Assembly: GCA_043783695.1 (NCBI GenBank)
Contig: JAYVZC010000524.1
Span: 1 to 30,362 of the forward strand
Origin: Bacteroidota bacterium
GTDB lineage: Bacteria; Bacteroidota; Bacteroidia; 2-12-FULL-35-15
Length of the DNA stretch: 30,362 bases
Direction: 5' to 3'
The translations under genes and the position numbers were made by a program. A model generated the notes under the pieces. That model worked only from the letters and a program-made list of their open reading frames with translations, searched no databases and was not told the origin of the DNA. This document shows positions 10,224-30,246 of the stretch, piece by piece; position 1 is the first letter of the stretch; every line of letters begins with the position of its first letter.

Positions 10224-10752
10224 TTTAACAACCTCATACAAATGGGTACTAAGTATTTTATCCTGTATTTTTAAAAAATTATTTTTTTTCTATTGCAATC
10301 TGAATATCAAACAAATATATCAAAAAGCAAGTAAAATTTTGCCATTAAACGTATCTTTTTATTAATTCATTGAAAAAAAACAATGACTAAAAAAAAGAAC
10401 CAATTGCCCCTCTGTATACGTTAATAAGATACGCTTTTCACGAAAATGGTTGCAACCCAAACGCCTATTTTCATACTAAAACCCTCTTTTTATAGTAAAT
10501 AAGCTCCACTTTTAGTCTAAAAAAGCAAGTCCAATAGGAATTTACGCTTTTTATTAGCTGAATCTCTAAATTGGATTAAAAAGTTTAATAAATCATAAAA
10601 TTGAATATTTACGGGTGTTTTCAATGAAATACCATTTAAAGCAATTAGCATTCAACCTAGAATGATTGGGTTTACATTTTTGATGAAAAATATGGAATAA
10701 AAATAATTGCAAAAAGATATCAAAAATAATTGCAAATTTGTGACTCTTAAAA

Positions 10753-12243: not shown

Positions 12244-12268
12244 CTTCTCGACTCCGCTCGAAGTGACA
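12244..12268 (+). repeat. REP-like palindrome, family 2 (TGTCAC-tagged on the minus strand)
   Basis: CTTCTCGACTCCGCTCGAAGTGACA shares TCGACTCCGCTC-N3-GTGACA with the copy inside tsaB at 17636. Confidence 0.8.
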
Positions 12269-12337
12269 AGCTTTGGGTTACAGTTATAGTATTAATTTGT
12301 TTGTTAAAAGGGAATCAAGAACTGACGATAATCTATT

Positions 12338-12365
12338 CCCCTCTTGAGAGGGGCTATGGGCGTGT
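12338..12365 (+). repeat. GC-rich hairpin repeat, divergent family 1 copy
   Basis: CCCCTCT-TG-AGAGGGG followed by the tail CTATGGGCGTGT, similar to the hairpin and G-rich tail of the metH cassette ends. Confidence 0.55.
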
Positions 12366-12387
12366 CTTTGTTTTAAAAATGTTTATT

Positions 12388-12852
12388 ATGAAAAAATATA
12401 TTTTTATTCTTATTATTTTTTGCGGAGCATTCTTTTCTTCTTGTGGCGATTTCCAGGAAGTAACATTCAGTGGAATAGAAAGTATGAAACTAACGAAGAT
12501 CTCTCAGCAAGGAGCTGAAGCAGAAATGGTGGTCAAGATTAAAAACCCAAACAAAACTGCTTTCACAATTTATAAATCCGATTTCGATGTTTCCCTAAAT
12601 GGTATTAATGGTGGCAAAGCACATTTATCGGATAACGTAAAGATAAAAGCGAATTCAGAGCAGACTTATACTTTCAAAATAAAATCTGACTTTTCATCTA
12701 TAAGCATGAATGACCTTCCTAAATTAATGTCGTTGGCAAGTAGTAAAAATATGAAAATAGGATTAAAAGGAAATCTTAAAGTTGGAAAATTATTTGTGAG
12801 GAAAAATTATCCTGTAGAGATGAGCGAAAGTGTTCCTTTGAGTCTGAATTAA
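12388..12852 (+). CDS. LEA type 2 (WHy domain) lipoprotein
   Basis: ATG 12388 gives MKKYIFILIIFCGAFFSSC, a lipoprotein-type signal, and the LEA_2 motif VKIKNPN. The longer ORF-track start at 12301 runs through a repeat and is probably not real. Confidence 0.8.
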   Translation: MKKYIFILIIFCGAFFSSCGDFQEVTFSGIESMKLTKISQQGAEAEMVVKIKNPNKTAFTIYKSDFDVSLNGINGGKAHLSDNVKIKANSEQTYTFKIKSDFSSISMNDLPKLMSLASSKNMKIGLKGNLKVGKLFVRKNYPVEMSESVPLSLN

Positions 12853-14147
12853 TTATCCCATTTACAATTATCAATTCTGTCCAGCCCAAATAATCCGGTG
12901 CTTTTCGTAACTTCTATTTTTTTTGCAGAAAAAATATTTCCTTTGCTTGCTTCCAAACATGTAGCAACATTTCTTTCTAAAGAAGAACTATTTCCATCTC
13001 CAACAAGTGTAATTTCCAATCCTTGACTTCCGTTTTTAATAGAAACAATATCGTATGTTGTTGATGATGTTTTAATGGGAATAAGCATATTCAAACAAAA
13101 GATAATATTAATCAAGCACATTCCAAATCCAGAAAAAGCATACATAGAAAACTGGTGATATTCCATATCTAAATATTCTTTCACATATTTCCATTGTATC
13201 AATCCAAGTACACCACATAAAAAAAGCATAATAAATACTCCGCCAATACTAATAACTGTTGTTGACCAAAACCATATCAATAAAGGGATTCCTGCAAACA
13301 ATCCAAGAAACGTGGAGGTCATTGCAATATAAATTCCATTTCTTTGAATGGTTGTTTGTAATAATGAAAAACGTTCATCAATATGAGAATTATTGATGAT
13401 AGATTGATTCAAATCTGATTCTCCTTTTCGGTACGAAGTTTCAAAAACGGCAACTGCTCTTTCAGCATATACCCTTACTTGATAATCACCTTTAACGTTT
13501 GCAGGGTCTTGATTTAACATCAGCATCAAAAAATTAAAAAGATGAGGCAATTCTTTTCTGAATTCTTTGGGGGCTTCAAAAAAATGTTCGACACAAACTG
13601 CAAAAAACTCATGCATGTTTGTTCCGCCATAGTCTCTTAAAAAAGTAATTCGTTGTTCTTTTAAATCGTGATAGTCCTTTGTAGCAACCTCTTCCCACTT
13701 TTCAAAATATGTGGAAAAATGTTCGTCATAATTACCTTCTTCATCCAAATCAATATACAATGCGTGGGCTAATTCATGTAATCCCAAATTAATTTTATCG
13801 TCATCTACAGCATAACCTTCTTTAAAATCATTCCAAGAAAGAGACAACACTCCACTTTGAGTATTTAATCCTTTTAAATTGGTGTTCAAAAATTTAGAAA
13901 AGAAGATGCGAGGAAAAACATTTATTGCATATAAATGAGAAATCATATAATCTTTCAACCCGAACGTTAACTGAATGGCAGCAGCTGAAATCAACACTTT
14001 TATTTCATCGGTAATGACAATTCCTTCTCTTCCAATAAATTTTTTGTCTTCCATAAAATGGAATAGTCGAGCGACAAAAATTTCCTGAGCATCGGGAGAA
14101 AGATTTTTGAAATAGGTATTTTTTTGCTTTAATAGATTATAAGGCAC
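12849..14147 (-). CDS. Zinc-dependent peptidase, MtfA/M90 family, fused to a C-terminal membrane domain
   Basis: LHELAHAL (HExxH), YGGTNMHEFFAVCVEHFFEAP and SAAAIQLTFGL, followed by about three predicted TM helices. Confidence 0.8.
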   Translation of the reverse strand: MPYNLLKQKNTYFKNLSPDAQEIFVARLFHFMEDKKFIGREGIVITDEIKVLISAAAIQLTFGLKDYMISHLYAINVFPRIFFSKFLNTNLKGLNTQSGVLSLSWNDFKEGYAVDDDKINLGLHELAHALYIDLDEEGNYDEHFSTYFEKWEEVATKDYHDLKEQRITFLRDYGGTNMHEFFAVCVEHFFEAPKEFRKELPHLFNFLMLMLNQDPANVKGDYQVRVYAERAVAVFETSYRKGESDLNQSIINNSHIDERFSLLQTTIQRNGIYIAMTSTFLGLFAGIPLLIWFWSTTVISIGGVFIMLFLCGVLGLIQWKYVKEYLDMEYHQFSMYAFSGFGMCLINIIFCLNMLIPIKTSSTTYDIVSIKNGSQGLEITLVGDGNSSSLERNVATCLEASKGNIFSAKKIEVTKSTGLFGLDRIDNCKWDN

Positions 14148-14204
14148 GGATGAAATTAAAAATTATAATTGATAAATAAAAATTATAGTTTGTATTTTTA
14201 TAAA

Positions 14205-16238
14205 ATGAAAGAATTTTCTGAAAAATACACCAACTCCTTAATTCACGAAAGCAGTCCTTATTTACTGCAACATGCGCACAATCCGGTAAATTGGTATGCC
14301 TGGAGTAATGATACATTAGAAAAAGCAAAATCGGAAAATAAATTAATCCTGATAAGTGTTGGTTATTCGGCTTGCCATTGGTGCCATGTGATGGAACACG
14401 AATGTTTTGAAGATGAAGAAGTAGCAAAACTCATGAACGATTATTTTATCTGCATAAAAGTAGACAGAGAAGAACGACCGGATATTGATCAAGTTTATAT
14501 GATGGCTGTTCAATTAATGACGGGACAAGGCGGTTGGCCACTCAACTGTTTTGCTTTGCCGGATGGACGGCCTATTTATGGCGGAACATATTTTCCAAAA
14601 CAAAATTGGATGAACATTTTATTGAACTTGGCAGATACCTACAAACATGAGCCTGAAAAAGTTTTGGATTATGCAAAACAATTAACCGAAGGAGTAAAAT
14701 TAGCGGAGCTTGTAAAAATTAATTTAGAAGAAAAGGAATTTACAATTGATACTCTACATAAAAGTGTAAACACGTGGAAACAACGATTTGATGGAGAAGA
14801 TGGCGGTCCGAGTAAAGCACCTAAATTTCCTTTACCAAACAATTATCAATTTCTGCAACACTATGTTTATCATACAAAAGATGAAACGGTAGAAAAACAC
14901 ATAGAGCTCACTTTAAAAAAGATGGCTTATGGTGGAATCTATGATCAAATCGGAGGCGGATTTTCTCGTTACTCGGTTGACCATTTTTGGAAAGTTCCGC
15001 ATTTTGAAAAGATGCTTTACGATAATGCTCAATTGGTGACACTTTATTCTGAGGCCTATCAGAAAACTAAAAATCCCTTGTACAAACAAATTGTTTTTGA
15101 AACATTGGCATTTGTAGAACGAGAATTAACATCTCCCGAAGGAGGCTTTTACGCTGCACTGGATGCTGATTCAGAAGGTGTGGAAGGGAAATATTATGTC
15201 TGGACAAAAGAAGAATTACAAACTATCCTGCAAGAAAAATTTGATGTGTTTACAGATTACTACAATGTAAATGCAAGAGGACTGTGGGAGCACGAAAATT
15301 ATATTTTATTGAGAAACGATGATGATGCGATTGTTGCTGAAAGAAATAAAATAAGTTTAGAAGAATTACAAAAAACAATTGAAGCTTGTAAAAAACAACT
15401 TTTACCAATAAGAGAAAGACGTATTCATCCTGGATTAGACAATAAAATACTTACTTCTTGGAACGCCTTGATGTTAAAAGCATACATTGATGCATACAAT
15501 GTGTTTGATGAACCACATTTTTTAGATGTTGCTTTAAAGAATGTCAACTTCTTAATACAAAATTCATTTGTCAAAAATCAATTGCTTCATCTTGCAGAAT
15601 CAAATCAGAAAATAAATGGATTTCTGGAAGATTATGCATTTATTATAGAAGCACTCATTTCTCTCTTTGAAACAACATTGGATGAAAAGCATCTTCACAA
15701 AGCAAACGATTTGATGAGGTATACCATTGAACATTTTCAGGATAAAAATTCAGGAATGTTTTATTTTACTTCAGATGATGACAAGGAGCTTATTACAAGA
15801 AAAATGGAATTATCAGATAATGTAATTCCGGCATCCAACTCCAGTATTGCTAAGTTACTCTTTGTTTTGGGGCATCATTTTGAATCGGAGGAGTATGTTT
15901 CTATGAGTAAAAAAATGTTAAATAATATGCTTACTGAAATTGAAAATTATGGTTCAGGATACAGTAATTGGGCGACATTATTGCTTTATTTTAGCTGTCC
16001 TTTTTATGAGTTGGCAATTGTTGGTAAATCTGTTGATGAAAAAAGGAAAAACCTCAATAAACATTACCATCCAAATAGGATATTTGCTGGAAGTGTTTCT
16101 GAAAGTTCCTTACCACTGCTAAAAAACAGGTTTGTTAAAGACGAAACACTCGTCTATATTTGTAAAGGGAAAACCTGTTTACAACCGGTAAAAGAAGTAG
16201 AGGAAGCATTGAAATGCCTCAGCCCAACTTTTCCTTAA
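14205..16238 (+). CDS. Thioredoxin-domain protein, YyaL/SPATA20 family
   Basis: [44 protein letters not shown] and [13 protein letters not shown] 14205 is the preferred start. Confidence 0.92.
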
Positions 16239-16251
16239 AGGAGAAGAAGTT
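16217..16251 (+). repeat. Degenerate family 1 hairpin repeat overlapping the yyaL 3' end
   Basis: CCTCAGCCCAACTTTTCCTTAAAGGAGAAGAAG resembles the consensus CCTCACCC-N3-CCCTCTCC-N3-5-GGAGAGGG. Confidence 0.5.
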
Positions 16252-16280
16252 GAGACGGACTTATTATTTAATAATATCAT

Positions 16281-17264
16281 TTGAAAAAATATTTTTTTGC
16301 ATACATTTTCCTTTTTGCAATTCATCATTGCAACGCTCAACTGGTAAGCACCAAACCAGTTGAGATAAATGTTGGTCCCACTAACTTCAATTCTACAGTT
16401 GTCAAACAAAATAAAATAAAAAAAATTGATGTTGTCATTGTCGATAAACCTGATGGACAAATGATTATTGACAAAGGTGCAAGTGAGGGTTATCAATTTG
16501 ATAGCCTCGGCAGAGTTACCCGTTATTATTATACGATATTTCATTCGGCAGAAAGAGAAGAAGTGGATGTTCCTGCCATAAAAAAGAAAGGGCGAATTAT
16601 TCGTCAAGCCACTACAAAAACTGTTACCAAATATTTTAATGATACCATTTTTGCATATATTTTTTACGACAACAAAAACAGAGTTGTTTCCAAACGGGTT
16701 AGAACCGGAGATTATTACGATGCGTATTATTATGAATACAATGAGCAAGGACAAATAAAAAAAGAAATGCATTTCAAGGAAACGAATGAAAGTGAAAATA
16801 AAAACGAATTTAAGTTAGGCGTTCAAAGTCTTTTGTCAACTGAATCATTCGAATATATAGTTCTCACTCCTACTCAAATTAAAAAAAAATGCCTGAATGA
16901 TGAAGGGCGAGAATATAAAAAAGCAATCATCAATTACGATGTAAAAGAAAATAAACTATCGGAGAGCTATGAATTTATTGTAAGCTGGATGCGACAAGAA
17001 AATGTTTATCAATACGATTCAAATGGCAGGCTCCTTGAACGAACATATACCAGCAATGAAAGCGGAGAAGTAAAAGAATACACCGCTTATCAATACAATC
17101 CAAACGGGGTTTTGTTGGAGGAGAAAAAGTTTAAAAATGATGTTTTATTATTTGAAATAAGTTCTTTGTATGACGAAACAAATAATCTGATAAAATCAAA
17201 GGTTATTCGCGATCACAAAAATACTTCTATTGGAATTGTGAAATTTGGATATAGTTTTTATTAA
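16281..17264 (+). CDS. Secreted hypothetical protein with YD/RHS-like repeats
   Basis: TTG start, signal peptide, and repeats YEYNEQGQIKKE, YQYDSNGRLLE, YQYNPNGVLLEE. Confidence 0.7.
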   Translation: MKKYFFAYIFLFAIHHCNAQLVSTKPVEINVGPTNFNSTVVKQNKIKKIDVVIVDKPDGQMIIDKGASEGYQFDSLGRVTRYYYTIFHSAEREEVDVPAIKKKGRIIRQATTKTVTKYFNDTIFAYIFYDNKNRVVSKRVRTGDYYDAYYYEYNEQGQIKKEMHFKETNESENKNEFKLGVQSLLSTESFEYIVLTPTQIKKKCLNDEGREYKKAIINYDVKENKLSESYEFIVSWMRQENVYQYDSNGRLLERTYTSNESGEVKEYTAYQYNPNGVLLEEKKFKNDVLLFEISSLYDETNNLIKSKVIRDHKNTSIGIVKFGYSFY

Positions 17265-18022
17265 ACTTCGCCTTTCTTCTTCCCAGCAACAAAATCCTTC
17301 AAGTAAAACGGTTCAAAATAAGCAACATTTTCAAATTGCTTAGCATTGTATGCTTGCTCGGATAGTCCAATCATCTCTTTCGCAGAAGGAACAACATCGT
17401 CTATAAAAATAGTATTTGAATTTTGAGAAAATGTTTCTTTGCATTTAGCAGCTCCATCTCCGAAAAAAACAATTTTATTCGTTTTAAAAATATCTGAAAA
17501 AGAATGTTCATCAATAATTTCTGCAGCAGTTGGTTTTATTTCTTTTCCCACTGAATCATAAATGGCACAATACACTTCCATTCTGCGAGCATCTAACATT
17601 GGACAAAAAAATGTTGGTTGTCCAGCGTCCACTCGCCCTTCGACTCCGCTCAGGGTGACAGCTCGGGATGACCGACCTTCGGTCGCACTCAGGGTGATGT
17701 AACGAGAAGATGTTGCTAAGGAAAGGTATTTTAGAGTGTCCACAGCAACCAAAGGTTTATCCAAAGAATAACACAATCCTTTTGCTGTACTAACTCCAAT
17801 TCTTAATCCTGTATAGGAGCCTGGACCTTTACTAACGGCTATTGCCTCAATATCGGAAAGTTTAACATTTCCTTGCTTGCAAACATTTTCAATAAATAGG
17901 GTTAGATTTTCGGCATGAGAATAATTACCGTTCTGTTCTTTGAGTGCAATTAATTTTCCATCTTTCGCAAGAGAAACACTGCAAACAGTAGTTGCTGTTT
18001 CTAAGTTTAAGATAAGTGCCAT
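17261..18022 (-). CDS. tsaB: tRNA threonylcarbamoyladenosine biosynthesis protein TsaB, with an in-frame repeat insertion
   Basis: ILNLETATTVCSV, GPGSYTGLRIGVSTAKGL, PMLDARRMEVY and EPFYLK. Confidence 0.93.
   Translation of the reverse strand: MALILNLETATTVCSVSLAKDGKLIALKEQNGNYSHAENLTLFIENVCKQGNVKLSDIEAIAVSKGPGSYTGLRIGVSTAKGLCYSLDKPLVAVDTLKYLSLATSSRYITLSATEGRSSRAVTLSGVEGRVDAGQPTFFCPMLDARRMEVYCAIYDSVGKEIKPTAAEIIDEHSFSDIFKTNKIVFFGDGAAKCKETFSQNSNTIFIDDVVPSAKEMIGLSEQAYNAKQFENVAYFEPFYLKDFVAGKKKGEV
17636..17697 (-). repeat. Tandem pair of family 2 REP-like palindromes inside tsaB
   Basis: Minus strand TCACCCTGAGTGCGACCGAAGG and TGTCACCCTGAGCGGAGTCGAAGGG, 39 nt apart, translated as ITLSATEGR and VTLSGVEGR. 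Confidence 0.85.
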
Positions 18023-18030
18023 TTGTTAAT

Positions 18031-19404
18031 TTATTTTTTGGTAACAGTAAACAATTCCGATTTATCTACTTTATTTACCACATCACCATCTTTTAACTCT
18101 TTGGCAATAGCACTATACGGAGCAGATATAATTTCATCTCCTACTTTTACTCCGGAAATAATTTCAATAAAATTATTATCCTGAATTCCGGTTTTTACTG
18201 CCAGCCTTTTCACTTTTCCTTCAGCTATATCGTAAACAAAAACACATTCTTCAATTTTTATCAAGGCATCATTGTTTTGTGTTTTATCATTTTCGTTTTT
18301 CACAACAATATCCTCATTGTCCTCTGCGCCATCTTTTTGTTTGTTCTTTTCCTTGAATGCCGTACTATCACTTCTAGTCGTAACCGATTGAATAGGAACC
18401 GTAATAACATTACTTACTTTTTTGGTTTGAATATCAACTGTTGCACTCATTCCTGGACGAAAAGGAGCGATGTTATTGTTTGCTGTTAACAAATCCATAT
18501 ATGATTCTTGCAGGATTCTAATCTTCACAACAAAATTTGTTACTTGTTCAGCTGTAACACCAGAAGTATTTGCAGAATTAGCAATCTCTGTTACTATACC
18601 TTTGAATTTTCTTCCTAAATAAGCATCCACTTCAATTGCAGAAGTATCACCATTGTGCACTCTTACAATATCATTTTCATTTACTTCAACACTAACTTCC
18701 ATTTCATTCAAATTCGCCAAACGCATAATTTCTGTTCCTTCCATTTGAGCAGTTCCCACAACACGTTCACCTTTTTCTTTGTTTAATTTAGAAACCGTTC
18801 CATTTACCGGAGAATAAATATTTGTTTTCGCCAAATTATCATTTGCTTCTTTCAAAGAGGCCTCTGTGCTTTTAACATTGTAATCAGAAGCATCCACATT
18901 ATCTTCCGCACCTTTCACATCTGCTTTTGCTCCTTCATAAGTGGCTTTAGCTGCATCAAAATCCGATTGAGAAATAGCGCCCTGATCAAACAATTTTTTG
19001 TTACGATTAAAAGAAGCTTCCGAATTTACAAAGGCCGCTTTTATTTGTTCCAAACGTGCTTTTGAATTTGATAAATTTGCTTTTGCTCCGTTTAATGTAG
19101 CCACCATTCTACTGGAATTTGATTCATAAATTAATGGATTTATTTTACACAACAAATCCCCTTTCTTAACCTGATCGCCTTCTTTTACAAGCAATTCAAC
19201 AATCTCTCCCGATACATCCGAACTAATTTTCACTTCCACTTCCGGCTGAATTTTCCCATTTGCTGAAACAGATTCCACAATGTTCCGTTTAGCAGCTGCT
19301 TCTGTTGCTACTTTTATTTCTTTATTCCCGGAACAGTTTTTTAACATCATAATTGATACTAAAAAAACTACTCCTGCAACGATAATCCAAATTATTTTTT
19401 TCAT
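18031..19404 (-). CDS. Efflux periplasmic adaptor (MFP/HlyD family)
   Basis: SANGKIQPEVEVKISSDVSGEI, VKEGDQVKKGDLL, a coiled-coil hairpin, IYSPVNGTV and FRPGMSATVDI. Confidence 0.9.
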   Translation of the reverse strand: MKKIIWIIVAGVVFLVSIMMLKNCSGNKEIKVATEAAAKRNIVESVSANGKIQPEVEVKISSDVSGEIVELLVKEGDQVKKGDLLCKINPLIYESNSSRMVATLNGAKANLSNSKARLEQIKAAFVNSEASFNRNKKLFDQGAISQSDFDAAKATYEGAKADVKGAEDNVDASDYNVKSTEASLKEANDNLAKTNIYSPVNGTVSKLNKEKGERVVGTAQMEGTEIMRLANLNEMEVSVEVNENDIVRVHNGDTSAIEVDAYLGRKFKGIVTEIANSANTSGVTAEQVTNFVVKIRILQESYMDLLTANNNIAPFRPGMSATVDIQTKKVSNVITVPIQSVTTRSDSTAFKEKNKQKDGAEDNEDIVVKNENDKTQNNDALIKIEECVFVYDIAEGKVKRLAVKTGIQDNNFIEIISGVKVGDEIISAPYSAIAKELKDGDVVNKVDKSELFTVTKK

Positions 19405-19426
19405 ATGACTTCTGTTTTATCACAGA

Positions 19427-19442
19427 CCTGCCGGCAGGCAGG
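19427..19442. repeat. GC-rich palindrome CCTGCCGGCAGGCAGG (third repeat type)
   Basis: Perfect 12-bp palindrome CCTGCCGGCAGG (19427-19438) plus CAGG within an AT-rich intergenic region. Confidence 0.65.
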
Positions 19443-19523
19443 TTACTCAGATTTTTTATTTAAAATTTTTCTGTATTTATCTAAGTTATCTGATTCTTTC
19501 TAATATTTTTTTAACGCCTTGCC

Positions 19524-19559
19524 CCCCTCTCCAAATGGAGAGGGGATAAAGGGTGAGGT
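19524..19559 (-). repeat. Family 1 hairpin repeat directly after the tolC stop codon
   Basis: Minus strand ACCTCACCCTTTATCCCCTCTCCATTTGGAGAGGGG, with stem CCCCTCTCC/GGAGAGGGG. Confidence 0.85.
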
Positions 19560-21014
19560 TTAGAATTTCAATGGTTTTCCTTGATAAAAGTCAAGCACTT
19601 TTGTTTTAAATACATATTCATATTTTGCTTGCAACAAATCACTTTGTGCTTTGATTAATTTATTTTTAGCATCGTTGTAAACATTGGTATTCAGTAATCC
19701 AACATTAAATTTTTGTTCGGTATACTTAAACGATTCTTGCATTGCCTCAATTGCTTTTAAAGATGCATTGTATTTCTTCAGTCCTGCGCTTGCATCTGCA
19801 TAAGCCTGTTGCACATTTTTTTGGATTGTCAACTTAGTCGACTCAACAGTTAAATCAGCATTCAACTTTTGAATACGAGCTCTATCAATAGACGTTTTTA
19901 TTTGAAAACGATTGAAGATTGGAACAGTCAAATAAAACCCGAAGGATTTATTTACGTTATCACTGTATTGGTTAGCAAAAGGCGTTTTTTCATACGTCCC
20001 GCTTGAAAACAATGGAGACAAAACAGTGTCACCGGCAGAAGTAATATCTCCATTAGCACCGTACCCTTGAAAAGCAGGCAAAGTTGAAAAACGCTGACTA
20101 GCTCCTGAATAACCTGTTCCATAAGATGCGCTAAATGTTAAGCGAGGACTCAATCCTCCCCAGGCAACATCCACATTTTTTTCAGCACTCTTCACCTTGT
20201 ACTCAGCACTTTTAATTTCCGGCAAATTACTTACTGCCGAATTATATATTTGAGTTGATGTTACAGTTAACAATGCATCTGTTCCGATATTCAATTCAGG
20301 TTTCACTATTGTTAAGCCATCCGCTGAAGGCATATTCAATAATTGGGCTAAATTCAAATACGAAATGTCTAATTGATTTTGTCCATTTGTTACATTTAAT
20401 TCTTCCAATGCCAATTGCGATTGAATGTCTAACAATGTTCCTTTTGCTAAAGACCCTGCATCAACTAATATTTTTGTTCTGTCGACCTGGGCAGCGGTTA
20501 TTCCCATTTGGTTTTTAGCATTGTCTACTATTTCAATGCTATACAATATTTGCAAATAGGCAGTAGCAATATTTAATGAGACATCGTTCTTCATCTTTTC
20601 GATATCGTATTTACCCGCCAGGTAAGTAAATTTATTTTGCTGGATGGTGTTTATGTTTTGAAAACCACTAAACAATGTAACATCCGTGCTCAATCCAAAA
20701 TTCTGAGAAAGTACTTGTGCATCGGCAAACTGATTTGTAAACCTGTCAACTGTTCTTCCTATATTATAAGAATGGGAAGCATTCGCATTTAAGGACGGCA
20801 AAAGATTGGCTTTACTTTGAGTTAAAGTTACTTGTGATAATTCAGTATTTAATTCCGATTGTTTAATTTGAATATTATTTTTTAATGCATAGTCGATGCA
20901 TTGCTCCAAAGTCATAGTTTGATTTGTTGCAGACGGAGTTTGTGCATTTGAATTAAATGCGAACAGTGCGGCCAAAAATGAACTCAAAATAAATCTATTT
21001 CTCAGAAAATTCAT
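19560..21014 (-). CDS. TolC family outer-membrane efflux protein
   Basis: Signal peptide from ATG 21014; LEQCIDYALKNN, LLPSLN, LTVPIF, YEYVFKTKVLDFYQG. A minus-strand TAAATTTG -7 element lies at 21032-21039. Confidence 0.9.
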   Translation of the reverse strand: MNFLRNRFILSSFLAALFAFNSNAQTPSATNQTMTLEQCIDYALKNNIQIKQSELNTELSQVTLTQSKANLLPSLNANASHSYNIGRTVDRFTNQFADAQVLSQNFGLSTDVTLFSGFQNINTIQQNKFTYLAGKYDIEKMKNDVSLNIATAYLQILYSIEIVDNAKNQMGITAAQVDRTKILVDAGSLAKGTLLDIQSQLALEELNVTNGQNQLDISYLNLAQLLNMPSADGLTIVKPELNIGTDALLTVTSTQIYNSAVSNLPEIKSAEYKVKSAEKNVDVAWGGLSPRLTFSASYGTGYSGASQRFSTLPAFQGYGANGDITSAGDTVLSPLFSSGTYEKTPFANQYSDNVNKSFGFYLTVPIFNRFQIKTSIDRARIQKLNADLTVESTKLTIQKNVQQAYADASAGLKKYNASLKAIEAMQESFKYTEQKFNVGLLNTNVYNDAKNKLIKAQSDLLQAKYEYVFKTKVLDFYQGKPLKF

Positions 21015-21109
21015 ATGCATCAGATGAGCCACAAATTTAAAAATAGAATTCGATATTTGAAGGATAAATCTCTAATTTAGTAATTGACCAAAAAAACAAA
21101 GGAAACCCG

Positions 21110-23035: not shown

Positions 23036-23064
23036 CAGCAACAATTATGAATAGAATTAAAAAT

Positions 23065-23496
23065 TTATTTTTCAGGAGCAGGCTTTGGGTCATTCATTGG
23101 AACACGATTTCCTAGTCGGTCCATATAATATTCTTCTCCTTCAAGTAAAACTTTTGCTTTCCCATTTACAAAATCATAAATAGCAACAAAGGTTGGCTTA
23201 ATAATAACTGTTCCTTTTGTATCCACCAATCCCCATTTTCTGGACACTCTAACTTTTGCCAGACCATCAACAAAATTTGAAACTTCATCGTATTTAGGAG
23301 GAACTACCACATTTCCTGTTGTATCCACAAAACCCCATTTGTGATTTGACTTTATTTTTGCCAAACCTTGAAAATACGCTCCTTGATAATCATACTTAGA
23401 TGATTTCTCTTTAGTTTTTGATTTTCCTTTTTGTGCAAACGATGTGCTTACAGAAAAAAGGATAACCAATAAAAAGTAAAAGTGTTTTAATTTCAT
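23065..23496 (-). CDS. WG-repeat secreted protein
   Basis: Signal peptide and repeats GLAKIK...KWGFVDTTG, GLAKVR...KWGLVDTKG. A TAAATTTG -7 element lies at 23501-23508 on the minus strand. Confidence 0.85.
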   Translation of the reverse strand: MKLKHFYFLLVILFSVSTSFAQKGKSKTKEKSSKYDYQGAYFQGLAKIKSNHKWGFVDTTGNVVVPPKYDEVSNFVDGLAKVRVSRKWGLVDTKGTVIIKPTFVAIYDFVNGKAKVLLEGEEYYMDRLGNRVPMNDPKPAPEK

Positions 23497-23738
23497 TTTA
23501 CAAATTTAAGGAAAAACTGAAGGCATTAGTTGGCTAAATTTGGTTCAATACTATCTCAAAAAAATTCAAATATCCACAGATAAAATAGAACAATTATAAT
23601 TGCATCCATCATAAAATAGATGTTCTAATAATGGAAGATTAAAGCTTTAAAATTTCTTAAAAGCATCTGTTTTTAATAAGATTCATTTTCCCTTAAAATT
23701 TTAATTATTTGATAATCAACAATTTAAAACAAATACAA

Positions 23739-23789
23739 ATACATAATCTACAGATACATAATATTCTTATGTATATTTGCGTTATGTAT
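23739..23789 (+). promoter_or_regulatory. padR promoter with a putative operator
   Basis: ATACATAA-N5-TTATGTAT perfect inverted repeat (23754-23774) overlapping TATATTTG (23772-23779). Extra half-sites at 23739 and 23782. Confidence 0.65.
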
Positions 23790-24122
23790 TCATCAGAACT
23801 AATAAAAGGGACTTTAAAAACGATAGTTTTAAAGTTGTTATCCGAAACAGAAAGAATGTACGGATATGAGATCACTCAAAAAGTGAAAGAATTAACAAGC
23901 GACAAAATTCAAATCACAGAAGGAGCGCTTTATCCTACACTTCATTCTTTGGAAAAAGACGGAGTTGTAACTACAGAAGTAGTGAAAATCGGAAAACGTA
24001 TAAGAAAATATTATACGCTCACTCCTAAAGGAAAATTAAATGCAACTGAAAAAGTAAATGAATTTGCAGATTACATGAATACCATGAGATTTTTACTTGA
24101 CATAAAACCACAAGTAAGATAA
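23784..24122 (+). CDS. PadR family transcriptional regulator
   Basis: MYSSELIKGTLKTIVLKLL...MYGYEI...GALYPTLHSLEKDG...RKYYTLT. ATG 23784 is the likely start. Confidence 0.9.
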   Translation: MYSSELIKGTLKTIVLKLLSETERMYGYEITQKVKELTSDKIQITEGALYPTLHSLEKDGVVTTEVVKIGKRIRKYYTLTPKGKLNATEKVNEFADYMNTMRFLLDIKPQVR

Positions 24123-25297
24123 TGTATGCATTGAGTGAAAAACAAATTGATTTTATTCTCAACGATATCAAAATTCGCGGTGTTGAGATGGAGGACCTGC
24201 AGCTAAACCTCCTTGATCATATTTGTTGTGTAATTGAATGTGAACTTGACAACGATGGCGATTTTGACAATTTCTATCAAAAAACAATTCCCAGACTTTT
24301 TAAAAAAGAATTGAAAGAGATTGAAGAAGAAACCATTCTATTACTAACCTTTAAAAACTATTATGCCATGAAAAAAGCAATGATAAGAACGGGATTCTTT
24401 TCTGTTATCACAATTATATGGGGTTCGCTTTCAAAACTAATGCACTGGCCCGGTTCAGCCCCTATGCTAATCCTCGGAGTCGGAAGTCTTGCATTAATTT
24501 TTATTCCGTTAATGTTCATTTTAAAAACAAAAGATGAAAGCAGCAAGCGCGATAAATTAATTCTGGGGCTCGCCTCACTAATCGGAATTTCCTTGTGCCT
24601 TGCTACACTGTTTACTGTCATGCATTGGCCAACTCCAACCAATGGCTTCTTTTGGTTTGCCGCGATCTGCATTTCAGCGTTCATTTTTATTCCTGTTTAT
24701 TTTTTCACAGGCATCCGAAATCCTGACACAAAGCTTAACACCATTGTTACCACAGTTATACTTATAGGCGCAACCGGCCTACAATTTACAATGGTAAATA
24801 TGAGACCTGCATTAAAGCTTACGCAGATAAAGATGTACAACTACATTCAAAGTGAAGAGCTTCTGAAAAAAATTCAGACCAATTCAAAAAACCCAGACAA
24901 CGGCCAAAATAAATTGGTAAACGAGATCAATTCAAAAGCAGAGGAGATAAAAAGCATGATCCTAGAAAATGCTATTGGTGAAAAAATAATTCCAAAAGAT
25001 TTTGAAAGCAAAAATATAGAAATGCTGGAAGGTAACTTAGGAGGTGGATTTCACGACAATGGAAATGGGATATCTGAGAATGGAATTCTAGTGCTTAAAG
25101 ACCTGAAAATAGCAATACAAAAATACAATTCATTAGGAACTACAAATGAAGAAAATAAAATTCCCGTGGATCATTCTATTTTAGATATTGAATTTAACAA
25201 AATCGAACGATACAGTAATTATTCTGTATTGAACAACATCACACAAATTCAAATGTATTTGGCAACAGCCGAAAATAAAGTAACAGCTTATAAATAG
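24122..25297 (+). CDS. PadR-coupled membrane protein (GldL-N-like TM segments)
   Basis: Start overlaps the padR stop; N-terminal LLDHICCVIE motif; repeated xMHWPx TM hairpins; soluble C-terminal tail. Confidence 0.7.
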   Translation: MYALSEKQIDFILNDIKIRGVEMEDLQLNLLDHICCVIECELDNDGDFDNFYQKTIPRLFKKELKEIEEETILLLTFKNYYAMKKAMIRTGFFSVITIIWGSLSKLMHWPGSAPMLILGVGSLALIFIPLMFILKTKDESSKRDKLILGLASLIGISLCLATLFTVMHWPTPTNGFFWFAAICISAFIFIPVYFFTGIRNPDTKLNTIVTTVILIGATGLQFTMVNMRPALKLTQIKMYNYIQSEELLKKIQTNSKNPDNGQNKLVNEINSKAEEIKSMILENAIGEKIIPKDFESKNIEMLEGNLGGGFHDNGNGISENGILVLKDLKIAIQKYNSLGTTNEENKIPVDHSILDIEFNKIERYSNYSVLNNITQIQMYLATAENKVTAYK

Positions 25298-25353
25298 ATT
25301 TTGATCTTCAAAAACATTTCAGATTGCTGTCATGCAAAAAAAGCATCTGAAAT

Positions 25354-25390
25354 AAAAAATCCCCGTTTCGTAGCATGGCGGGGATTTTTT
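25354..25390. terminator. Bidirectional intrinsic terminator
   Basis: AAAAAATCCCCG / CGGGGATTTTTT stem between convergent genes. Confidence 0.85.
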
Positions 25391-25397
25391 GCTTTTA

Positions 25398-28300
25398 TTA
25401 ATAAGCCAAATTCGGACCTAACCAACGTTCTGCTTTATCCAAACTCATTCCTTTTCTTTTAGCATAATCTACTACTTGATCTTGTTTAATTTTGCCAATT
25501 CCAAAATAGTGCGATTGAGGATGAGCAAAATATAAACCACTAACAGCAGCTGTTGGAAACATAGCCATGCTTTCTGTTAAAATCATTCCAGTATTTTTTT
25601 CTACATCCAATAATTTCCAGATAGTTGGTTTCTCGGTATGATCGGGTTGTGCCGGATAACCTGGAGCTGGACGAATTCCCGCGTATTCTTCCTTTATTAA
25701 TTCTTCATTTTTCAAATTCTCCTCTTTTGCATATCCCCAGAATTCTTTTCTCACTTTTTTATGCATCAACTCAGCAAAAGCTTCCGCCAAACGATCGGCC
25801 AATGCTTTTAACATGATGGCAGAATAATCGTCATGGTCTTTTTCGAAACGGGAAACGTGTTCATCAATTCCAATTCCGGTTGTGAGGGCAAAGGATCCAA
25901 TGTAATCAGACCTCACCCCCGGCCCCTCTCCGAAGGAGAGGGGTGCGAGTTCCTCTTTAATTTTTTTGATTACTTCATCTATGGAAGTTAAAACAGATTT
26001 GTTGGAAAAACGGATTACTCTGTATCCGATATCTTCAAGCATATACGTTCTCCCATCATCATATTCTTTTTGATGATTGTGAATCTCTCCATCAACTTCA
26101 ACAATTAGTTTCTCTTCAATACAAATAAAATCCGCTATAAATTGTCCTATTGGATGTTGTCTTCTAAACTTCGATTCTAATTTACGATTACGTAACTCTT
26201 GCCATAATTTTTCTTCCGCTGGAGTTGGTGATTTACGCATACTTTTCGCATGAAGAATATTTCGACTCCAATTTTCCCAATCTGCAGTATGATATCTCGG
26301 AACGCCTCCCCTCTCCTTCGGAGAGGGGCTGGGGGTGAGGTCTTTTGGCAAAACAAAATCCGACAAAGCAACATTATATTGTCCGGCTGGTTTTTTTGTT
26401 TGCTGGCGCAATGAATGAAAAGTTGTTTTTATTTCTTTTCTACTTTCATCAGTATAAACTTCTATATCATCTGAATTGATTTGATTAGCAGGATAAATTC
26501 CAATCACAGCATTTGCCTTCAGCCATTTTTCATCAATAATCTTTTTTAACATGGCTTGAGCATCGTCAAATAATTTACGTGCTTCTTCTCCACGAGTTGG
26601 GTCTTTTAATATTTTTGGATAAGAACCTTTCATTTCCCAAGAGATGAAGAAAGGTGTCCAGTCAATGTATTCAGCTATTTCCGATAAAGGATAATCATTG
26701 ATGACTTTATTTCCAATGAAAGATGGTTTTACAATTTCTGTTTTATTCCAATCAATTGGAAATTTATTTTCGCGTGCTTCTGCTATTGAAATAAATTTAT
26801 TTTGTGATTGAGCATTTTTATTTTGTTCGCGAACACGGTCATAATCCTTAGTGATTTCAACCATAAAAGCATCACGCAATTCATCCGAAATTAAACTACT
26901 AGCAACTGGAACTGATTTACTAGCATCGTTCACATGTACAACAGGACCAGAATAATTTTGAGCAATTTTTACAGCCGTATGCACTTTAGAAGTTGTTGCG
27001 CCACCAATTAATAAAGGAGTTTTAAATCCTAAACGTTCCATTTCTTTGGCAACATGAACCATTTCATCCAACGATGGTGTAATCAATCCGCTCAAACCAA
27101 TTATATCGACATCATGTTTTTTTGCTTCCTCTAAAATTTTATCAGCAGAAACCATTACACCTAAATCAATGATTTCATAATTGTTACAAGCCAATACCAC
27201 TCCGACAATATTTTTTCCAATATCGTGAACATCACCTTTTACCGTTGCCATTAATATTTTTCCGCGCCCCCTAGCCCCACCCGACCTCCCCAAAGGGGAG
27301 GAGCTGGATTTCGAGTCTAAGAATGATTTGATTTTAGCTAATACATTGTCTGTGTCAACGAGAACTTCTTCATTAGTAAATCGAATTACTTTGTATCCTT
27401 TTTCTTCCAACCAGCTAGTTCTTTGAGCATCATTTTCTATATTTTCTGGTAATTGATGAATTAAGCCATCAATTTCAATTATTAGTTTTTTTGATAAACA
27501 AACTAGGTCAGCAATATATTTTCCTATTATATGTTGTCTTCTAAATTTATGCTCCCCTAATTTTTTTCCTTTAACTAAACTCCATAAGGCATTCTCTGCT
27601 TCAGTGGGATTGCTTCTATGTTTTTCAGCAAACTCCTTCAAAAGTGGATATAAAATTGGATCCGCTGTTTCATAATCATGACGATGAGCAGCTCCCTTTC
27701 CTTCGGAAAGGGCTAGGGATAGGCTTTTTTCTTTTTCGGCTTGAAGATAGGGCTCTAAATATGCAACTGCTTTTTTCATAACACGTGCACTCTTCACCAC
27801 TTGAGGTAAAAACATTTTTCCGCTTCCAAACAAATCACCCACCACATTCATTCCATCCATCAATGGTCCTTCAATAACATGCAAGGGCCGGCCTAATTTT
27901 AATCTTGCCTCTTCTGTATCTACATCAATATATTCTACAAGTCCTTTTACAAGAGCATGACTCAAACGTTCCTCCACTGTTCCTTTTCTCCATTCTTCAT
28001 TTTTCTCCGCTTTTTCTTTTGTAATTCCTTTCAATGATTCAGCATGGTCAACTAATCTTTCTGTAGCATCATCTCTTCTGTTCAATAAAACATCTTCTAC
28101 CAATTCCAATAATGTTTTATCAATATCATCATACACTTGCAATTGTGCAGGATTTACAATTCCCATATCCATTCCTGCTTTTACAGCATGATATAAAAAT
28201 GCACCGTGAATTGCTTCACGCACATGATCATTCCCTCTGAAAGAAAATGAAACATTACTAACTCCTCCGCTCACTTTTGCAAACGGAAGATTTTCCTTGA

Positions 28301-30014
28301 TCCATTTTGTTGCGTTGAAAAAATCGAGTGCATTTAACCGATGTTCTTCCATTCCGGTTGCAACGGGAAAAATATTCGGATCGAAAATAATATCTTGCGG
28401 AGGAAAATGAACTTTATCTACAAGCACATCATAAGCTCGTTTGCAAATATCAATTCTGCGTTGCAATGTATCTGCTTGTCCTTGTTCATCAAAAGCCATA
28501 ACAATTACAGCGGCACCGTATTGTTTTATTTTATTGGCTTGTTCAATAAATTTTTCTTCTCCTTCTTTTAAAGAGATGGAATTTACAATTGCTTTTCCTT
28601 GAACACATTTTAAGCCTGCTTCAATCACACTCCATTTAGAAGAGTCGATCATTATCGGCACTTTACTGATATCCGGTTCAGATGCAATGAGATTTAAGAA
28701 CTTGGTCATTGCTGCTTCACTGTCCAACATTCCTTCATCCATGTTCACGTCAATTACCTGAGCTCCACCATCTACTTGATCTTTCGCAATAGACAATGCC
28801 TCTTCGTAATTTCCTTCGTTGATCAAACGCAAGAATTTTTTGGAACCTGTAACGTTTGTCCGTTCACCCACATTCATAAAATTACTTTCGGGACGAAGTG
28901 TTAATGGTTCCAATCCGCTCAAGTGCATTAATGTATCGGCTGCAGGTATTTTACGAGGCTTTGACTCTTTTGCCAATTCAGCAATCCGTTTGATATGTTC
29001 AGGAGTTGTTCCACAACATCCACCAACAATATTTAAAAATCCGGCACGTAAAAAATCTTCGATCTGATGTCCCATTTCATGAGCATCCTGATCGTATTCA
29101 CCAAACTGATTGGGCAATCCTGCATTGGGATATGCACTTACATAAAAAGGAGCTTTGTTTGAAAGCTCTTCTAAATAAGGACGCATATCTTTTGCACCCA
29201 AAGCACAATTTAAACCAACGCTTAATAAATCGACATGTGAAATAGAATTTAAAAATGCTTCCGTAGTTTGTCCAGATAATGTTCTACCACTTGCATCGGT
29301 AATTGTTCCCGACACCATTACTGGCATCATAATATTTTTTTCTTTGCAAACATTTTGAATAGCAAACAAAGCTGCTTTTGCATTCAAAGTATCAAAAATG
29401 GTTTCAACCAATAACAAATCTGCACCGCCTTCAATCAATCCACGAGCTTGTTCTGAATAAGCAACAACTAACTCATCAAAAGTAGTAGCACGAAATCCTG
29501 GATCGTTTACGTTTGGAGAAAGTGAAAGCGTTCTGTTGGTCGGGCCAAAAGCTCCTGCCACAAATACCCCACCCCTGCCCTCCCCAAAGGGGAGGGAGTT
29601 GATTTCTGCTAAATATTCTGCAACGGCTTCTTTTGCAATTTTTGCTGACTCGTAATTTAATTCATAAGCAAGCTCTTGCATGTCATAATCCGCCATTGCA
29701 ATTGTAGTTGCACTAAAAGTATTTGTTTCAATAATATCAGCTCCTGCTTTTAGATATTCTTTATGAATGGCTTTAATAATTTGCGGTTGAGTTATCGACA
29801 ATAAATCGTTATTCCCTTTCAAGTCTTTATGCCAATCTGCAAAGCGTTTGCTTCTGAAATCTTTTTCTTCCAGCTTATATTGTTGAATCATGGTACCCAT
29901 TGCACCATCAATTACCAAAATGCGTTTTTCTAATTCTTTTTTTATATCAGACCCCTCTCTAGTTCTCTCCATTGGGGAGAGAGGGTTGCCTTCACTTATC
30001 TTTATCGTATTCAT
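25398..30014 (-). CDS. metH: B12-dependent methionine synthase with two in-frame DUF559 insertions
   Basis: [34 protein letters not shown], pterin domain, [20 protein letters not shown] and GIRPAPGYP motifs. At 1538 aa it is longer than the about 1230 aa typical of the family. Confidence 0.95.
25908..26343 (-). mobile_element. Putative DUF559 endonuclease cassette B with 36-bp terminal inverted repeats, in frame in metH
   Basis: Inverted repeats at 25908-25943 and 26308-26343 match at 35 of 36 positions. The interior encodes PTPAEEKLW...[15 protein letters not shown]...[10 protein letters not shown]...GYRVIRFSN. The mobility is inferred. Confidence 0.8.
27264..27725 (-). mobile_element. Putative DUF559 endonuclease cassette A flanked by inverted family 1 hairpins, in frame in metH
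   Basis: Hairpins CCTCCCC-AAA-GGGGAGG (27285-27301) and CCCTTTCC-TTC-GGAAAGGG (27694-27712) in inverted orientation. The interior encodes PTEAENALW...[15 protein letters not shown]...[10 protein letters not shown]...GYKVIRFTN. Confidence 0.78.
29566..29597 (+). repeat. Solo family 1 hairpin, in frame in metH
   Basis: ACCCCACCCCTGCCCTCCCCAAAGGGGAGGGA, translated on the minus strand as [11 protein letters not shown]. Confidence 0.88.
29950..29985 (+). repeat. Degenerate solo family 1 hairpin in the metH N-terminal extension
   Basis: GACCCCTCTCTAGTTCTCTCCATTGGGGAGAGAGGG with stem TCTCTCC/GGAGAGA, translated as [12 protein letters not shown]. Confidence 0.7.
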
Positions 30015-30038
30015 ATTGCGGTTGTTCTATAAAGCAGT

Positions 30039-30177
30039 TTAGTGTAGTTCTCCGTAGTATAACTTTATATCATACTCAATTGTAACTTGTCCCTTTTCAG
30101 CAAAGCGAGTAAATATTTTTTTTCAAAACGCTCATCATAAAATTAAAATTCTTATGTCCTTCTGTAGACATATAAGA
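30039..30177 (-). pseudogene. Remnant C-terminus of a class I SAM-dependent methyltransferase
   Basis: Manual translation SYMSTEGHKNFNFMMSVL, then a +1 frameshift in an A8 run, then KKIFTRFAEKGQVTIEYDIKLYYGELH*. An upstream in-frame stop is present. The family assignment is from recalled similarity only. Confidence 0.55.
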
Positions 30178-30211
30178 TTATTTGAAAAGCGATTTAATGT
30201 GTTCCTATAAT

Positions 30212-30246
30212 CTCACTCTAATCCTCTCCTTGCAAAAGGAAAGGGA
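30212..30246 (+). repeat. Degenerate family 1 hairpin in the metH leader
   Basis: CTCACTCTAATCCTCTCCTTGCAAAAGGAAAGGGA; 8 of 9 stem positions pair. Confidence 0.6.

Follow-up and report, generated by a model that had tools for sequence, protein, structure and literature searches.

Triplex-type DNA modules dispersed through the genome of a Bacteroidota MAG (34% G+C) are probably the ends of small mobile units, some of them carrying a DUF559 nuclease gene, that lie in frame in metH and other genes. Each module spans about 27–36 nt and consists of a 5' homopyrimidine arm, a loop of 3–7 nt, a homopurine arm, a linker of 2–5 nt and a G-rich mirror tail. The features found in the window, the whole stretch of 30,362 nt that was analysed, are collected in Table 1.

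Table 1. Modules and related features of the window, in order of position.
Feature	Position	Strand	Remarks
Intergenic member of 38-copy subfamily, 6-bp stem, GGGGTGTGT tail	12338..12364	+	tail with two changes
Decayed copy	16222..16262	-	family-type tail GGGCTGAGG (minus strand) beside decayed stem
Intergenic module: pyrimidine arm, 4-nt loop, purine arm, linker, mirror tail	19523..19558	+	9/10 stem pairs, 9/10 triplets
ACC[TC]CACCC match	19551-19559	-
metH, cobalamin-dependent methionine synthase	25398..30014	-	1538 aa, against ~1230-1260 in relatives
ACC[TC]CACCC match	25910-25918	+
Cassette 2 module, downstream end in metH sense, translated	25911..25943	-	9-bp stem, 9/9 tail triplets
DUF559 domain 2 (Vsr-like PD-(D/E)xK), in frame, metH activation domain	25947..26255	-	126 bits
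Cassette 2 module, upstream end in metH sense, translated	26308..26340	+	9-bp stem, 9/9 triplets
ACC[TC]CACCC match	26333-26341	-
Cassette 1 module, downstream end, stem CCTCCCC, tail GGTGGGG	27275..27301	-	7/7, 7/7
DUF559 domain 1, in frame, linker between metH cap and cobalamin-binding domains	27318..27638	-	122 bits
Cassette 1 module, upstream end, stem CCCTTTCC, tail GGGATAGG	27694..27723	+	8/8, 8/8
ACC[TC]CACCC match	29566-29574	+
Solo module in frame, metH homocysteine-binding domain	29567..29596	-	8/8
Degenerate module, 5' end of metH frame	29954..29983	-	one stem mismatch or wobble
Degenerate intergenic module	30209..30244	-	8 pairs + 1 wobble, 7/9 triplets

The dispersed family of ten hairpins described in the initial annotation (its family 1) is real, but only four of its ten sites match ACC[TC]CACCC to the letter (0.10 expected). 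Six copies are perfect or near-perfect, two (29950 and 30212) are degenerate, and the two decayed ones (12338 and 16217) score within background when stems and triplets are counted copy by copy. Five of the six good copies have a 3-nt linker. For the intergenic module at 19523..19558 the DNA hairpin fold amounts to -9.7 kcal/mol, and its tail ends 1 nt from the stop codon of a TolC-like ORF (19560-21032, minus strand). The decayed copy at 16222..16262 provides the final seven codons and the stop of an ORF on the plus strand (14169-16238), and the other decayed copy belongs to a subfamily of 38 copies with the form CCCCTC-N4-GAGGGG followed by a GGGGTGTGT tail. Of the two cassettes in metH, cassette 2 ends in inverted copies of one module, and the ends of cassette 1 are unlike in stem subtype. 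An ATG in the loop of the degenerate module at the 5' end of the metH frame aligns with the metH start codon of relatives.

The compensatory stem changes first noted in the window are confirmed by a set of 16 copies of the same geometry (alignment A5), which was used for the pair counts; 20 modules of mixed geometry aligned with MAFFT showed register shifts and did not enter these counts. In A5, 97.7% of the stem cells are paired, six of the eight pairs have changed on both sides and none on one side only. Not one of 500 shuffles reaches this pairing, and at most 76% of cells pair when the partner is slid. A fixed unpaired tag about 3 nt from the stem had also been claimed, and here the data disagree: the tail is a mirror of the purine arm and changes with the stem. 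All three segments covary, the stem always exchanging C-G for T-A and the tail placing G opposite G, and A or T opposite A. Perfect hairpins of 7 bp or more number 122 in the genome; among 113 hairpins picked by stem criteria only, an exact mirror tail lies within 8 nt in 86 and a direct copy in 6, and the table of arm class against tail class is block-diagonal. Counting triplets gives 710 G.G, 150 A.A, 71 with T opposite A and 25 others, so that 931 of 956 are canonical. The tail of A5 is triplet-compatible in 91.4% of cells when in register versus at most 60% when slid, a value matched by none of 1000 shuffles. A search that started from the tail returned 180 purine mirror repeats, compared with one to three in Markov genomes, and 86 of the 180 have a perfect complementary arm, in nine arm types. 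Polarity is equally strict, with 110 pyrimidine-first hairpins against a single purine-first one, and the reversed pattern had no match across 41 genomes.

To a protein that reads B-DNA or a free strand, a mirror tail would be meaningless, but it is just what an intramolecular triple helix requires, and as a sequence pattern it is characteristic of a class II purine-motif intrastrand DNA triplex. The three-way covariation across stem subtypes, which is new here, constitutes comparative evidence for selection on the predicted triplex geometry. We would give about an even chance to such a fold occurring in vivo and mattering there. The same pattern might also arise as a by-product of G-quadruplex formation or of protein-level selection for Pro/Ser/Gly-rich linkers, given that the tails are G-runs, that the purine runs could form quadruplexes and that in-frame copies encode linker-like peptides (for example PLSFGEGxGVR). 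We consider this highly improbable: three quarters of the copies are untranslated, the translated ones use different frames, and a quadruplex has no need for the A and T positions of the tail to mirror the arm, as they do.

At least 150 modules are present in the genome versus none in Markov controls; strict modules number 114 in 3.09 Mb versus 0 in each of five third-order Markov genomes. Some stand alone, and some consist of one hairpin flanked by two tails; others form inverted doublets whose tails point outward, or inverted pairs around DUF559 genes. Most strict modules (86 of 114) are intergenic and only a few nucleotides away from gene ends, some of them within the atp and nuo operons. 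Such positions would suit elements acting at the RNA level, namely hairpins that act as terminators or stabilise the 3' ends of mRNAs, a role proposed for REPs, and whose tail would be incidental. This reading is very unlikely, however, as the stem changes bypass G-U without one-sided steps, and the tail follows the rule of the purine motif, which does not form in RNA (PMC4666352). Module orientation, moreover, follows the body of the neighbouring gene independently of transcription direction, about 20 copies are translated, and Rfam, scanned with the window at E<=1, gave just two weak, unrelated matches. Tails abutting genes are most simply understood as tails-outward units occupying short intergenic gaps.

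The translated copies lie in frame within housekeeping genes, and their read-through hosts include UvrA, HutU, TrpA, AspRS, LeuRS, ValRS, DnaG, HemB and AnmK, among others. Poverty in stop codons had been suggested to favour in-frame survival, and both elements of this idea stand: 4.8 of six frames are open compared with 3.6 for random 29-mers, and the roughly 20 copies inside genes are read through. Purely pyrimidine or purely purine arms carry no stop codon, so insertions in surface loops can be read through. In metH, two cassettes and two solo modules are accommodated without a stop codon. Across 31 copies of the DUF559 domain, among them domain 2 of metH, the E, D, D and R of the catalytic core are invariant and the H is near-invariant. 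We rejected the possibility that the cassettes are inteins, because a Pfam scan of the 1538-aa protein returned MetH domains and DUF559 but no Hint or intein domain, and because the cassette junctions are module-encoded peptides.

When metH from 20 genomes was aligned, cassettes and solo modules proved to be present or absent at the same sites; G014 has a cassette with an internal deletion, and G004 a solo end. At the site of the solo module in the homocysteine-binding domain, G018 and G016 likewise have an insertion and 16 other relatives have none. Six public runs were matched, all of DNA and none recorded as RNA; contigs of four of them contain joints, for example 27264>27729, from a relative that lacks cassette 1, and 25943>26308, whose sides of 26-60 nt match at 85% likeness and which support no claim to an exact empty-site junction or excision product. 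Module counts range from 0 to 80 per genome within the genus, and from this variation together with presence and absence at the same site it follows that the modules are, or recently were, mobile. The congener G017 has undergone a burst of 71 CCTCCCC-type modules. Its doublets of about 125 nt are REPIN-like and share the ends AAGCCCCTCCC.../...GGGAGGGGCTT; no target-site duplication is visible in 12 that were aligned, and no autonomous partner or DUF559 cassette with matching ends was found in the 72%-complete assembly. The intergenic pairs of G000 were also considered as one MITE family, which was rejected, their spacers being AT-rich and unrelated.

A link to DUF559 had been proposed as well, and all five genes for this Vsr-like nuclease in the genome, the two metH cassettes included, are indeed bracketed by inverted module pairs. 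Bracketing extends to 24 of 32 DUF559 loci in the genus. Among 80 loci from other bacteria, which span many Bacteroidota families, Ignavibacteria, Chloroflexi, a Nitrospinaceae and a cyanobacterium, a module adjoins the nuclease in 67, the rest of these loci having 0.07 modules per 400 nt. The contig scan used an alignment of nine DUF559 sequences, a profile of all 31 copies being too diverse. Bracketing modules usually share their stem subtype on both sides. DUF559 matches and module counts correlate with a Spearman coefficient of 0.49, to which the cassettes themselves contribute two modules each and in which phylogeny is ignored. No gene other than DUF559 emerged as a candidate between the module pairs of this genome. 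The regular bracketing of DUF559 genes is new and provides a concrete candidate partner of the repeats.

The initial annotation had envisaged a protein that reads a hairpin plus a single-stranded tag at a fixed distance, as in REP/RAYT systems, where the protein is a Y1 (HUH) transposase. The arrangement of a hairpin with a nearby conserved stretch, the REPIN-like doublets of G017 and three Y1_Tnp matches in the genome agree with it. None of the three Y1_Tnp genes is flanked by modules, however, the nearest lying about 1.3 kb away; the tail varies with the stem; and the GTAG/CGTC foot of the REP superfamilies (PMC3733652) is absent. This reading fails, leaving a chance we regard as minimal, and survives as an analogy. 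The modules do resemble REP/REPIN-RAYT systems in being short dispersed palindromes with inverted doublets as the likely replicating unit and a bracketed single-domain nuclease gene. They differ in that this gene is PD-(D/E)xK Vsr-like and not HUH Y1, the flank is a mirror repeat, no fixed tetranucleotide foot exists and many copies lie inside genes.

In the explanation we favour, that of mobile units with triplex-type ends, each end would fold in single-stranded or supercoiled DNA as a hairpin with its tail in the major groove. The in-frame cassettes would behave as unspliced homing-endonuclease inserts, each nuclease clade being bound to one host gene and site; the clades found are specific in this way for LeuRS, IleRS, MetH, Acs, chorismate synthase, RecG, Lhr and others. 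As the two end hairpins are palindromic, they are also direct repeats, and slippage between them could delete the cargo and leave a two-tailed hairpin, from which further decay might produce solo modules. The bracketed DUF559 protein is a predicted enzyme that may act on or at module ends, a role to which we assign slightly less than an even chance.

The modules could instead be primary, moved by another enzyme or by recombination or replication slippage at non-B DNA, with DUF559 a passenger homing endonuclease gene that settles between or beside them and so gains stop-free flanks coding for flexible linkers. At least 150 modules stand against five nucleases in the genome, G017 had its burst without a matching cassette, and another congener, G031, has 29 modules and no DUF559 match. 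The nuclease clades track host gene and site like ordinary homing endonucleases, and local genomic instability has been connected with triplex motifs without recourse to an enzyme (PMC4666352). Yet the bracketing seems too regular for a passenger (67 of 80 loci, mostly with the same stem subtype on both sides), it reaches from Bacteroidota to E. coli, and no other candidate gene lies between the module pairs here; we consider a passenger role unlikely. A more far-reaching form of the favoured explanation appears doubtful in its turn: an intramolecular DNA triplex would be the recognised end structure, and DUF559 the missing BoxC/PIT/TM partner from E. coli (ycjD) to Bacteroidota, with intein-less cassettes homing into, and translated within, essential genes. 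If true, orphan BoxC/PIT/TM repeats would gain partner enzymes. The read-through cassettes exemplify a selfish nuclease living without splicing in essential enzymes such as MetH and aminoacyl-tRNA synthetases. Genome annotation is affected, the cassettes yielding over-long 'fusion' proteins, and there is relevance to domain-insertion engineering and to the understanding of homing elements.

Rickettsia palindromic elements (RPE) likewise lie in frame in housekeeping genes and are retained in the protein, but they are unrelated in sequence and have neither mirror tail nor nuclease cassette. A review treats them among prokaryotic MITEs (PMC10969869). Small nucleases of the Vsr/DUF559 superfamily in selfish inserts of conserved genes have precedents in the 'EDxHD' homing endonucleases, such as I-Bth0305I (PMC3239194) and those of fractured genes (PMC2677866), and the ShiLan HNH enzyme is encoded by an unspliced, stop-free homing insert in the host frame of a phage methylase (PMC11855218). 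Those nucleases are intronic, placed between split inteins, or out of frame. The DUF559 cassettes, by contrast, share the reading frame of their host gene, have triplex-type hairpin modules on both sides and show no intein or Hint domain.

Known since the 1990s, BoxC/PIT/TM repeats have, to our knowledge, been assigned no function or enzyme. The family 1 hairpins belong, by sequence, to the wider BoxC/PIT/TM class of G/C-rich class II intrastrand triplex motifs, with which they share the pyrimidine/purine hairpin, the mirror G-rich third segment and class II polarity. For the E. coli BoxC/PIT/TMECO repeats, triplex formation was demonstrated in vitro by CD and NMR, and a consensus with second loops TTA or CCG was described (Holder et al. 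2015, PMC4666352, which cites earlier work by Hoyne/Maher). That paper ties the motifs to local genomic instability, and in a term search its text proved to be silent on endonucleases, on Bacteroidetes and on insertions within coding sequence. The strict 9-nt TMECO consensus, CCCTCNCCC-N3-6-GGGNGAGGG-N3-GGGNGAGGG, has no match in our genome and an 8-nt version has 22, which places the modules in the wider class and not in TMECO proper. Both have a C-rich arm, a 3-6-nt loop, a G-rich arm, a loop of about 3 nt and a G-rich mirror segment, with near-identical words (GGAGAGGG/GGGTGAGG here, GGGNGAGGG there) and the second loops TTA and CCG. Many dispersed copies, sharp differences in number between close relatives and occasional two-tailed 'palindromic' copies are further common traits. 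The modules differ from TMECO in their several stem subtypes with three-way covariation, their Bacteroidota host, their in-frame copies and their role as inverted ends of DUF559 cassettes and doublets. The literature searched, though not exhaustively, contained no paper linking ycjD or DUF559 to BoxC. In E. coli, a match to the TMECO consensus lies 168 nt from the ycjD stop codon, placing a BoxC repeat beside this gene.

From their sequences, the modules of this genome (pyrimidine arm, loop, purine arm, linker and a G-rich tail mirroring the purine arm) appear to be members of the wider intrastrand triplex motif class, which is defined by a homopurine/homopyrimidine inverted repeat with an adjoining mirror repeat. 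The E. coli BoxC/PIT element TMECO is described as a class II purine-motif triplex with the consensus CCCTCNCCC-N3-6-GGGNGAGGG-N3-GGGNGAGGG and second loops TTA or CCG, and the purine motif forms in DNA, not in RNA (Holder et al. 2015, PMC4666352). Like TMECO, the modules have the same order, polarity and loops, and nearly the same words. As the genome contains no match to the strict 9-nt TMECO consensus and 22 matches to an 8-nt version, we place them in the wider class and outside TMECO proper. The source genome is a Bacteroidota MAG of 3.09 Mb (34% G+C, 531 contigs), whose closest relatives among named genomes are of the uncultured “Bacteroidetes bacterium RIFCSPLOWO2_12_FULL_35_15” type, and DNA of the window is present in sediment metagenomes.

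Across the 122 perfect hairpins of the genome that have a pyrimidine 5′ arm and a stem of 7 bp or more, the flank varies with the stem: GGGGAGG precedes GGAGGGG or GGTGGGG, GAGGGGG precedes GGGGGAG, GGGGAGAG precedes GAGAGGGG, and GGAGAGGGG precedes GGGGTGAGG. In a set of 113 hairpins with asymmetric arms, picked by stem alone, an exact mirror tail lies within 8 nt in 86 and a direct copy in 6, and the table of arm class against tail class is block-diagonal. The initial annotation had taken the tail for a fixed conserved motif; it alters instead with the stem, as its mirror. In the third strand of this set, G faces G 710 times, and A is faced by A 150 times and by T 71 times; 25 letters fall outside these combinations. 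It is the T or A opposite A, together with the absence of G-U intermediates, that fits the purine motif.

The proposed covariation of the stems holds. A gap-free alignment of 16 copies gave a stem pairing of 97.7%, with six of eight pairs altered on both sides and no one-sided changes, a value reached in 0 of 500 shuffles. In the same alignment, 91.4% of tail cells are triplet-compatible in register versus at most 60% when the tail is slid, and none of 1000 shuffles attained the observed compatibility. A tail-first search of the genome returned 180 purine mirror repeats (1–3 in Markov genomes); nine arm types are represented among the 86 that have a perfectly complementary arm. Polarity is almost uniform, with 110 pyrimidine-first hairpins versus 1 purine-first, and the reversed-polarity pattern has no match in 41 genomes. 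The strict module finder identified 114 modules, compared to none in five Markov genomes; with a 38-copy subfamily, the total is at least about 150.

Of the ten copies initially grouped as one family, six are perfect or near-perfect modules, two are degenerate, and two score within background (see table). Despite its score, the copy at 12338 belongs to the 38-copy subfamily (6-bp stem, GGGGTGTGT tail). Four of the ten places contain the literal tail motif ACC[TC]CACCC, with 0.1 expected. An ATG that aligns with the metH start codon of the relatives lies in the loop of one degenerate module, and the true metH start may thus be located ~14 codons downstream of the start of the annotated 1538-aa frame.

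Features of the window and their positions
Feature	Position	Remark
Perfect or near-perfect modules	19523, 25911, 26308, 27275, 27694, 29567	read and scored per copy
Degenerate modules	29954, 30209	scored per copy
Scores within background	12338, 16217	scored per copy; at 16217, decayed stem adjoining a retained family tail
Decayed module	16222-16262	the copy at 16217; last seven codons (CLSPTFP) and TAA of the thioredoxin-domain ORF; the TAA stop sits in the loop
Thioredoxin-domain ORF	14169-16238	689 aa
Degenerate module with aligned ATG	29954-29983	ATG in loop
metH ORF	25398-30014 (-)	1538 aa, two DUF559 domains in frame
DUF559, cassette 1	27318-27638
DUF559, cassette 2	25947-26255
Cassette leaders	26256-26307, 27639-27693	~35 aa
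Second palindromic family	17630-17705, 12244-12270	unrelated to the modules
Large secreted proteins	575-4153, 8061-10241	repeated beta-rich domains

Strict modules are intergenic in 86 of 114 cases; the other 28 fall in called genes (21 of them well inside). ORFs of 150 aa or more contain 83% of randomly chosen positions. The hosts of internal modules are UvrA, HutU (two), TrpA, AspRS, LeuRS (two), a FadB-like enzyme, DnaG, ValRS, HemB, AnmK, an RlmD-like methylase and others. The copies are indeed poor in stop codons, as had been suggested, with 4.8 of six frames open versus 3.6 in random 29-mers. For intergenic copies, the median distance to a gene boundary is 4 nt on the tail side and 80 nt on the hairpin side, probably because units with outward tails occupy short intergenic gaps. 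The congener G017 carries 71 CCTCCCC-type modules in ~125-nt doublets with common ends and a central hairpin, and no target duplication is visible in 12 aligned doublets. Twelve of these loci (L176-L187) are REPIN-like, in the order tail, hairpin, 45-nt spacer, hairpin, tail; the spacer has its own hairpin and two sub-types, the ends read AAGCCCCTCCC.../...GGGAGGGGCTT, and the terminal A(A) is often shared with the stop codon of the preceding gene. Nine hairpins of the source genome (contigs C11, C142, C166, C251, C305, C387, C391 and C429) have a mirror tail on both sides, which is what slippage between the two terminal hairpins of a cassette or doublet would leave if it removed the cargo.

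Each DUF559 domain of metH is bracketed by inverted modules with their tails outward, and alignment to solved MetH structures spans both insertion junctions. The end modules are translated as linkers, of one sequence type plus a PLSFGEGxGVR-like one. Of the 19 relatives, G017 alone has cassette 1. At the site of cassette 2, G017 and G007 have a cassette of the same type as here and G008 has another variant; G014 has an internally deleted remnant that keeps both ends, and G004 a solo end. Solo module 29567 is common to the window, G018 and G016, and solo modules lie in other metH loops of other species. The G014 remnant (L038, contig C5, metH residues ~1072-1130) is a natural deletion derivative that retains the end modules and ~40 nuclease-leader residues in frame, the nuclease core being gone. 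The leader, with a Y-x-T-A-D...W motif, is common to in-frame cassettes of the window and their homologues, where it separates the DUF559 core from the upstream module; it is missing from free-standing copies.

The tie to DUF559 noted initially extends beyond metH, as the other three DUF559 genes of the genome, which are free-standing, are also bracketed, with tails inward. Across the genus, open frames of 300-1542 aa contain ~30 of the ~85 DUF559 matches, and strict modules occur at the nuclease in 24 of the 32 loci examined. A wider set of 80 loci covered many Bacteroidota families, Ignavibacteria, Chloroflexi, a Nitrospinaceae and a cyanobacterium; here a module adjoins the nuclease in 67 (on both sides in 43), against a density elsewhere in these loci of 0.07 per 400 nt, and DUF559 is embedded in long frames in 68. 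Hosts include LeuRS (two sites), IleRS, MetH (two sites), acetyl-CoA synthetase, chorismate synthase, a PurL-type amidotransferase, RecG, Lhr, a DNA methylase, TsaB/D and a PaaZ-like enzyme, with one host site per nuclease clade. The nuclease core is kept (E, D, D and R invariant, H near-invariant). The nearest printed case is the ShiLan HNH element, a homing insert that is unspliced and stop-free (PMC11855218). In the E. coli K-12 region examined, a TMECO consensus match lies 168 nt past the stop of the DUF559 gene ycjD and adjoins a partial second copy of the 3′ end of that gene. At this locus (L092, 7280-7465), a 24-nt stretch of that end (GAATATTCTCCAGCACCGTCTCC) recurs ~100 nt downstream, between ycjD and BoxC, and the last ycjD codons overlap a partial purine/pyrimidine hairpin.

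As to what moves the modules, the REP/RAYT-type link proposed at first finds no support, since the Y1 transposase genes of the genome show no association with them. Module counts rise with DUF559 matches across 41 congeners (Spearman 0.49, uncorrected for phylogeny), from a median of 1.5 per genome without DUF559 to 13 with it; these counts and the genus tallies include the unpublished G052 (locus L070), on which no claim hinges. No cassette with ends matching the G017 burst was found in the G017 assembly, which is 72% complete, and one congener has 29 modules and no DUF559 match, as a passenger would allow. Taking these observations together, we give somewhat less than an even chance to DUF559 being an enzyme that acts on the modules, and consider the passenger role rather improbable.

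Members of the second palindromic family have the core TCGACTCCGCTC in common, and ...CAGGGTGAC... lies close by. One copy is intergenic, and two in tandem are translated in frame as part of tsaB (ATEGRSS...SGVEGRVDAG). A TsaB/TsaD-family gene of G017 contains a DUF559 cassette (L065). The C-terminal domain of both large secreted proteins resembles, by eye only, the gliding-motility/T9SS sorting type.
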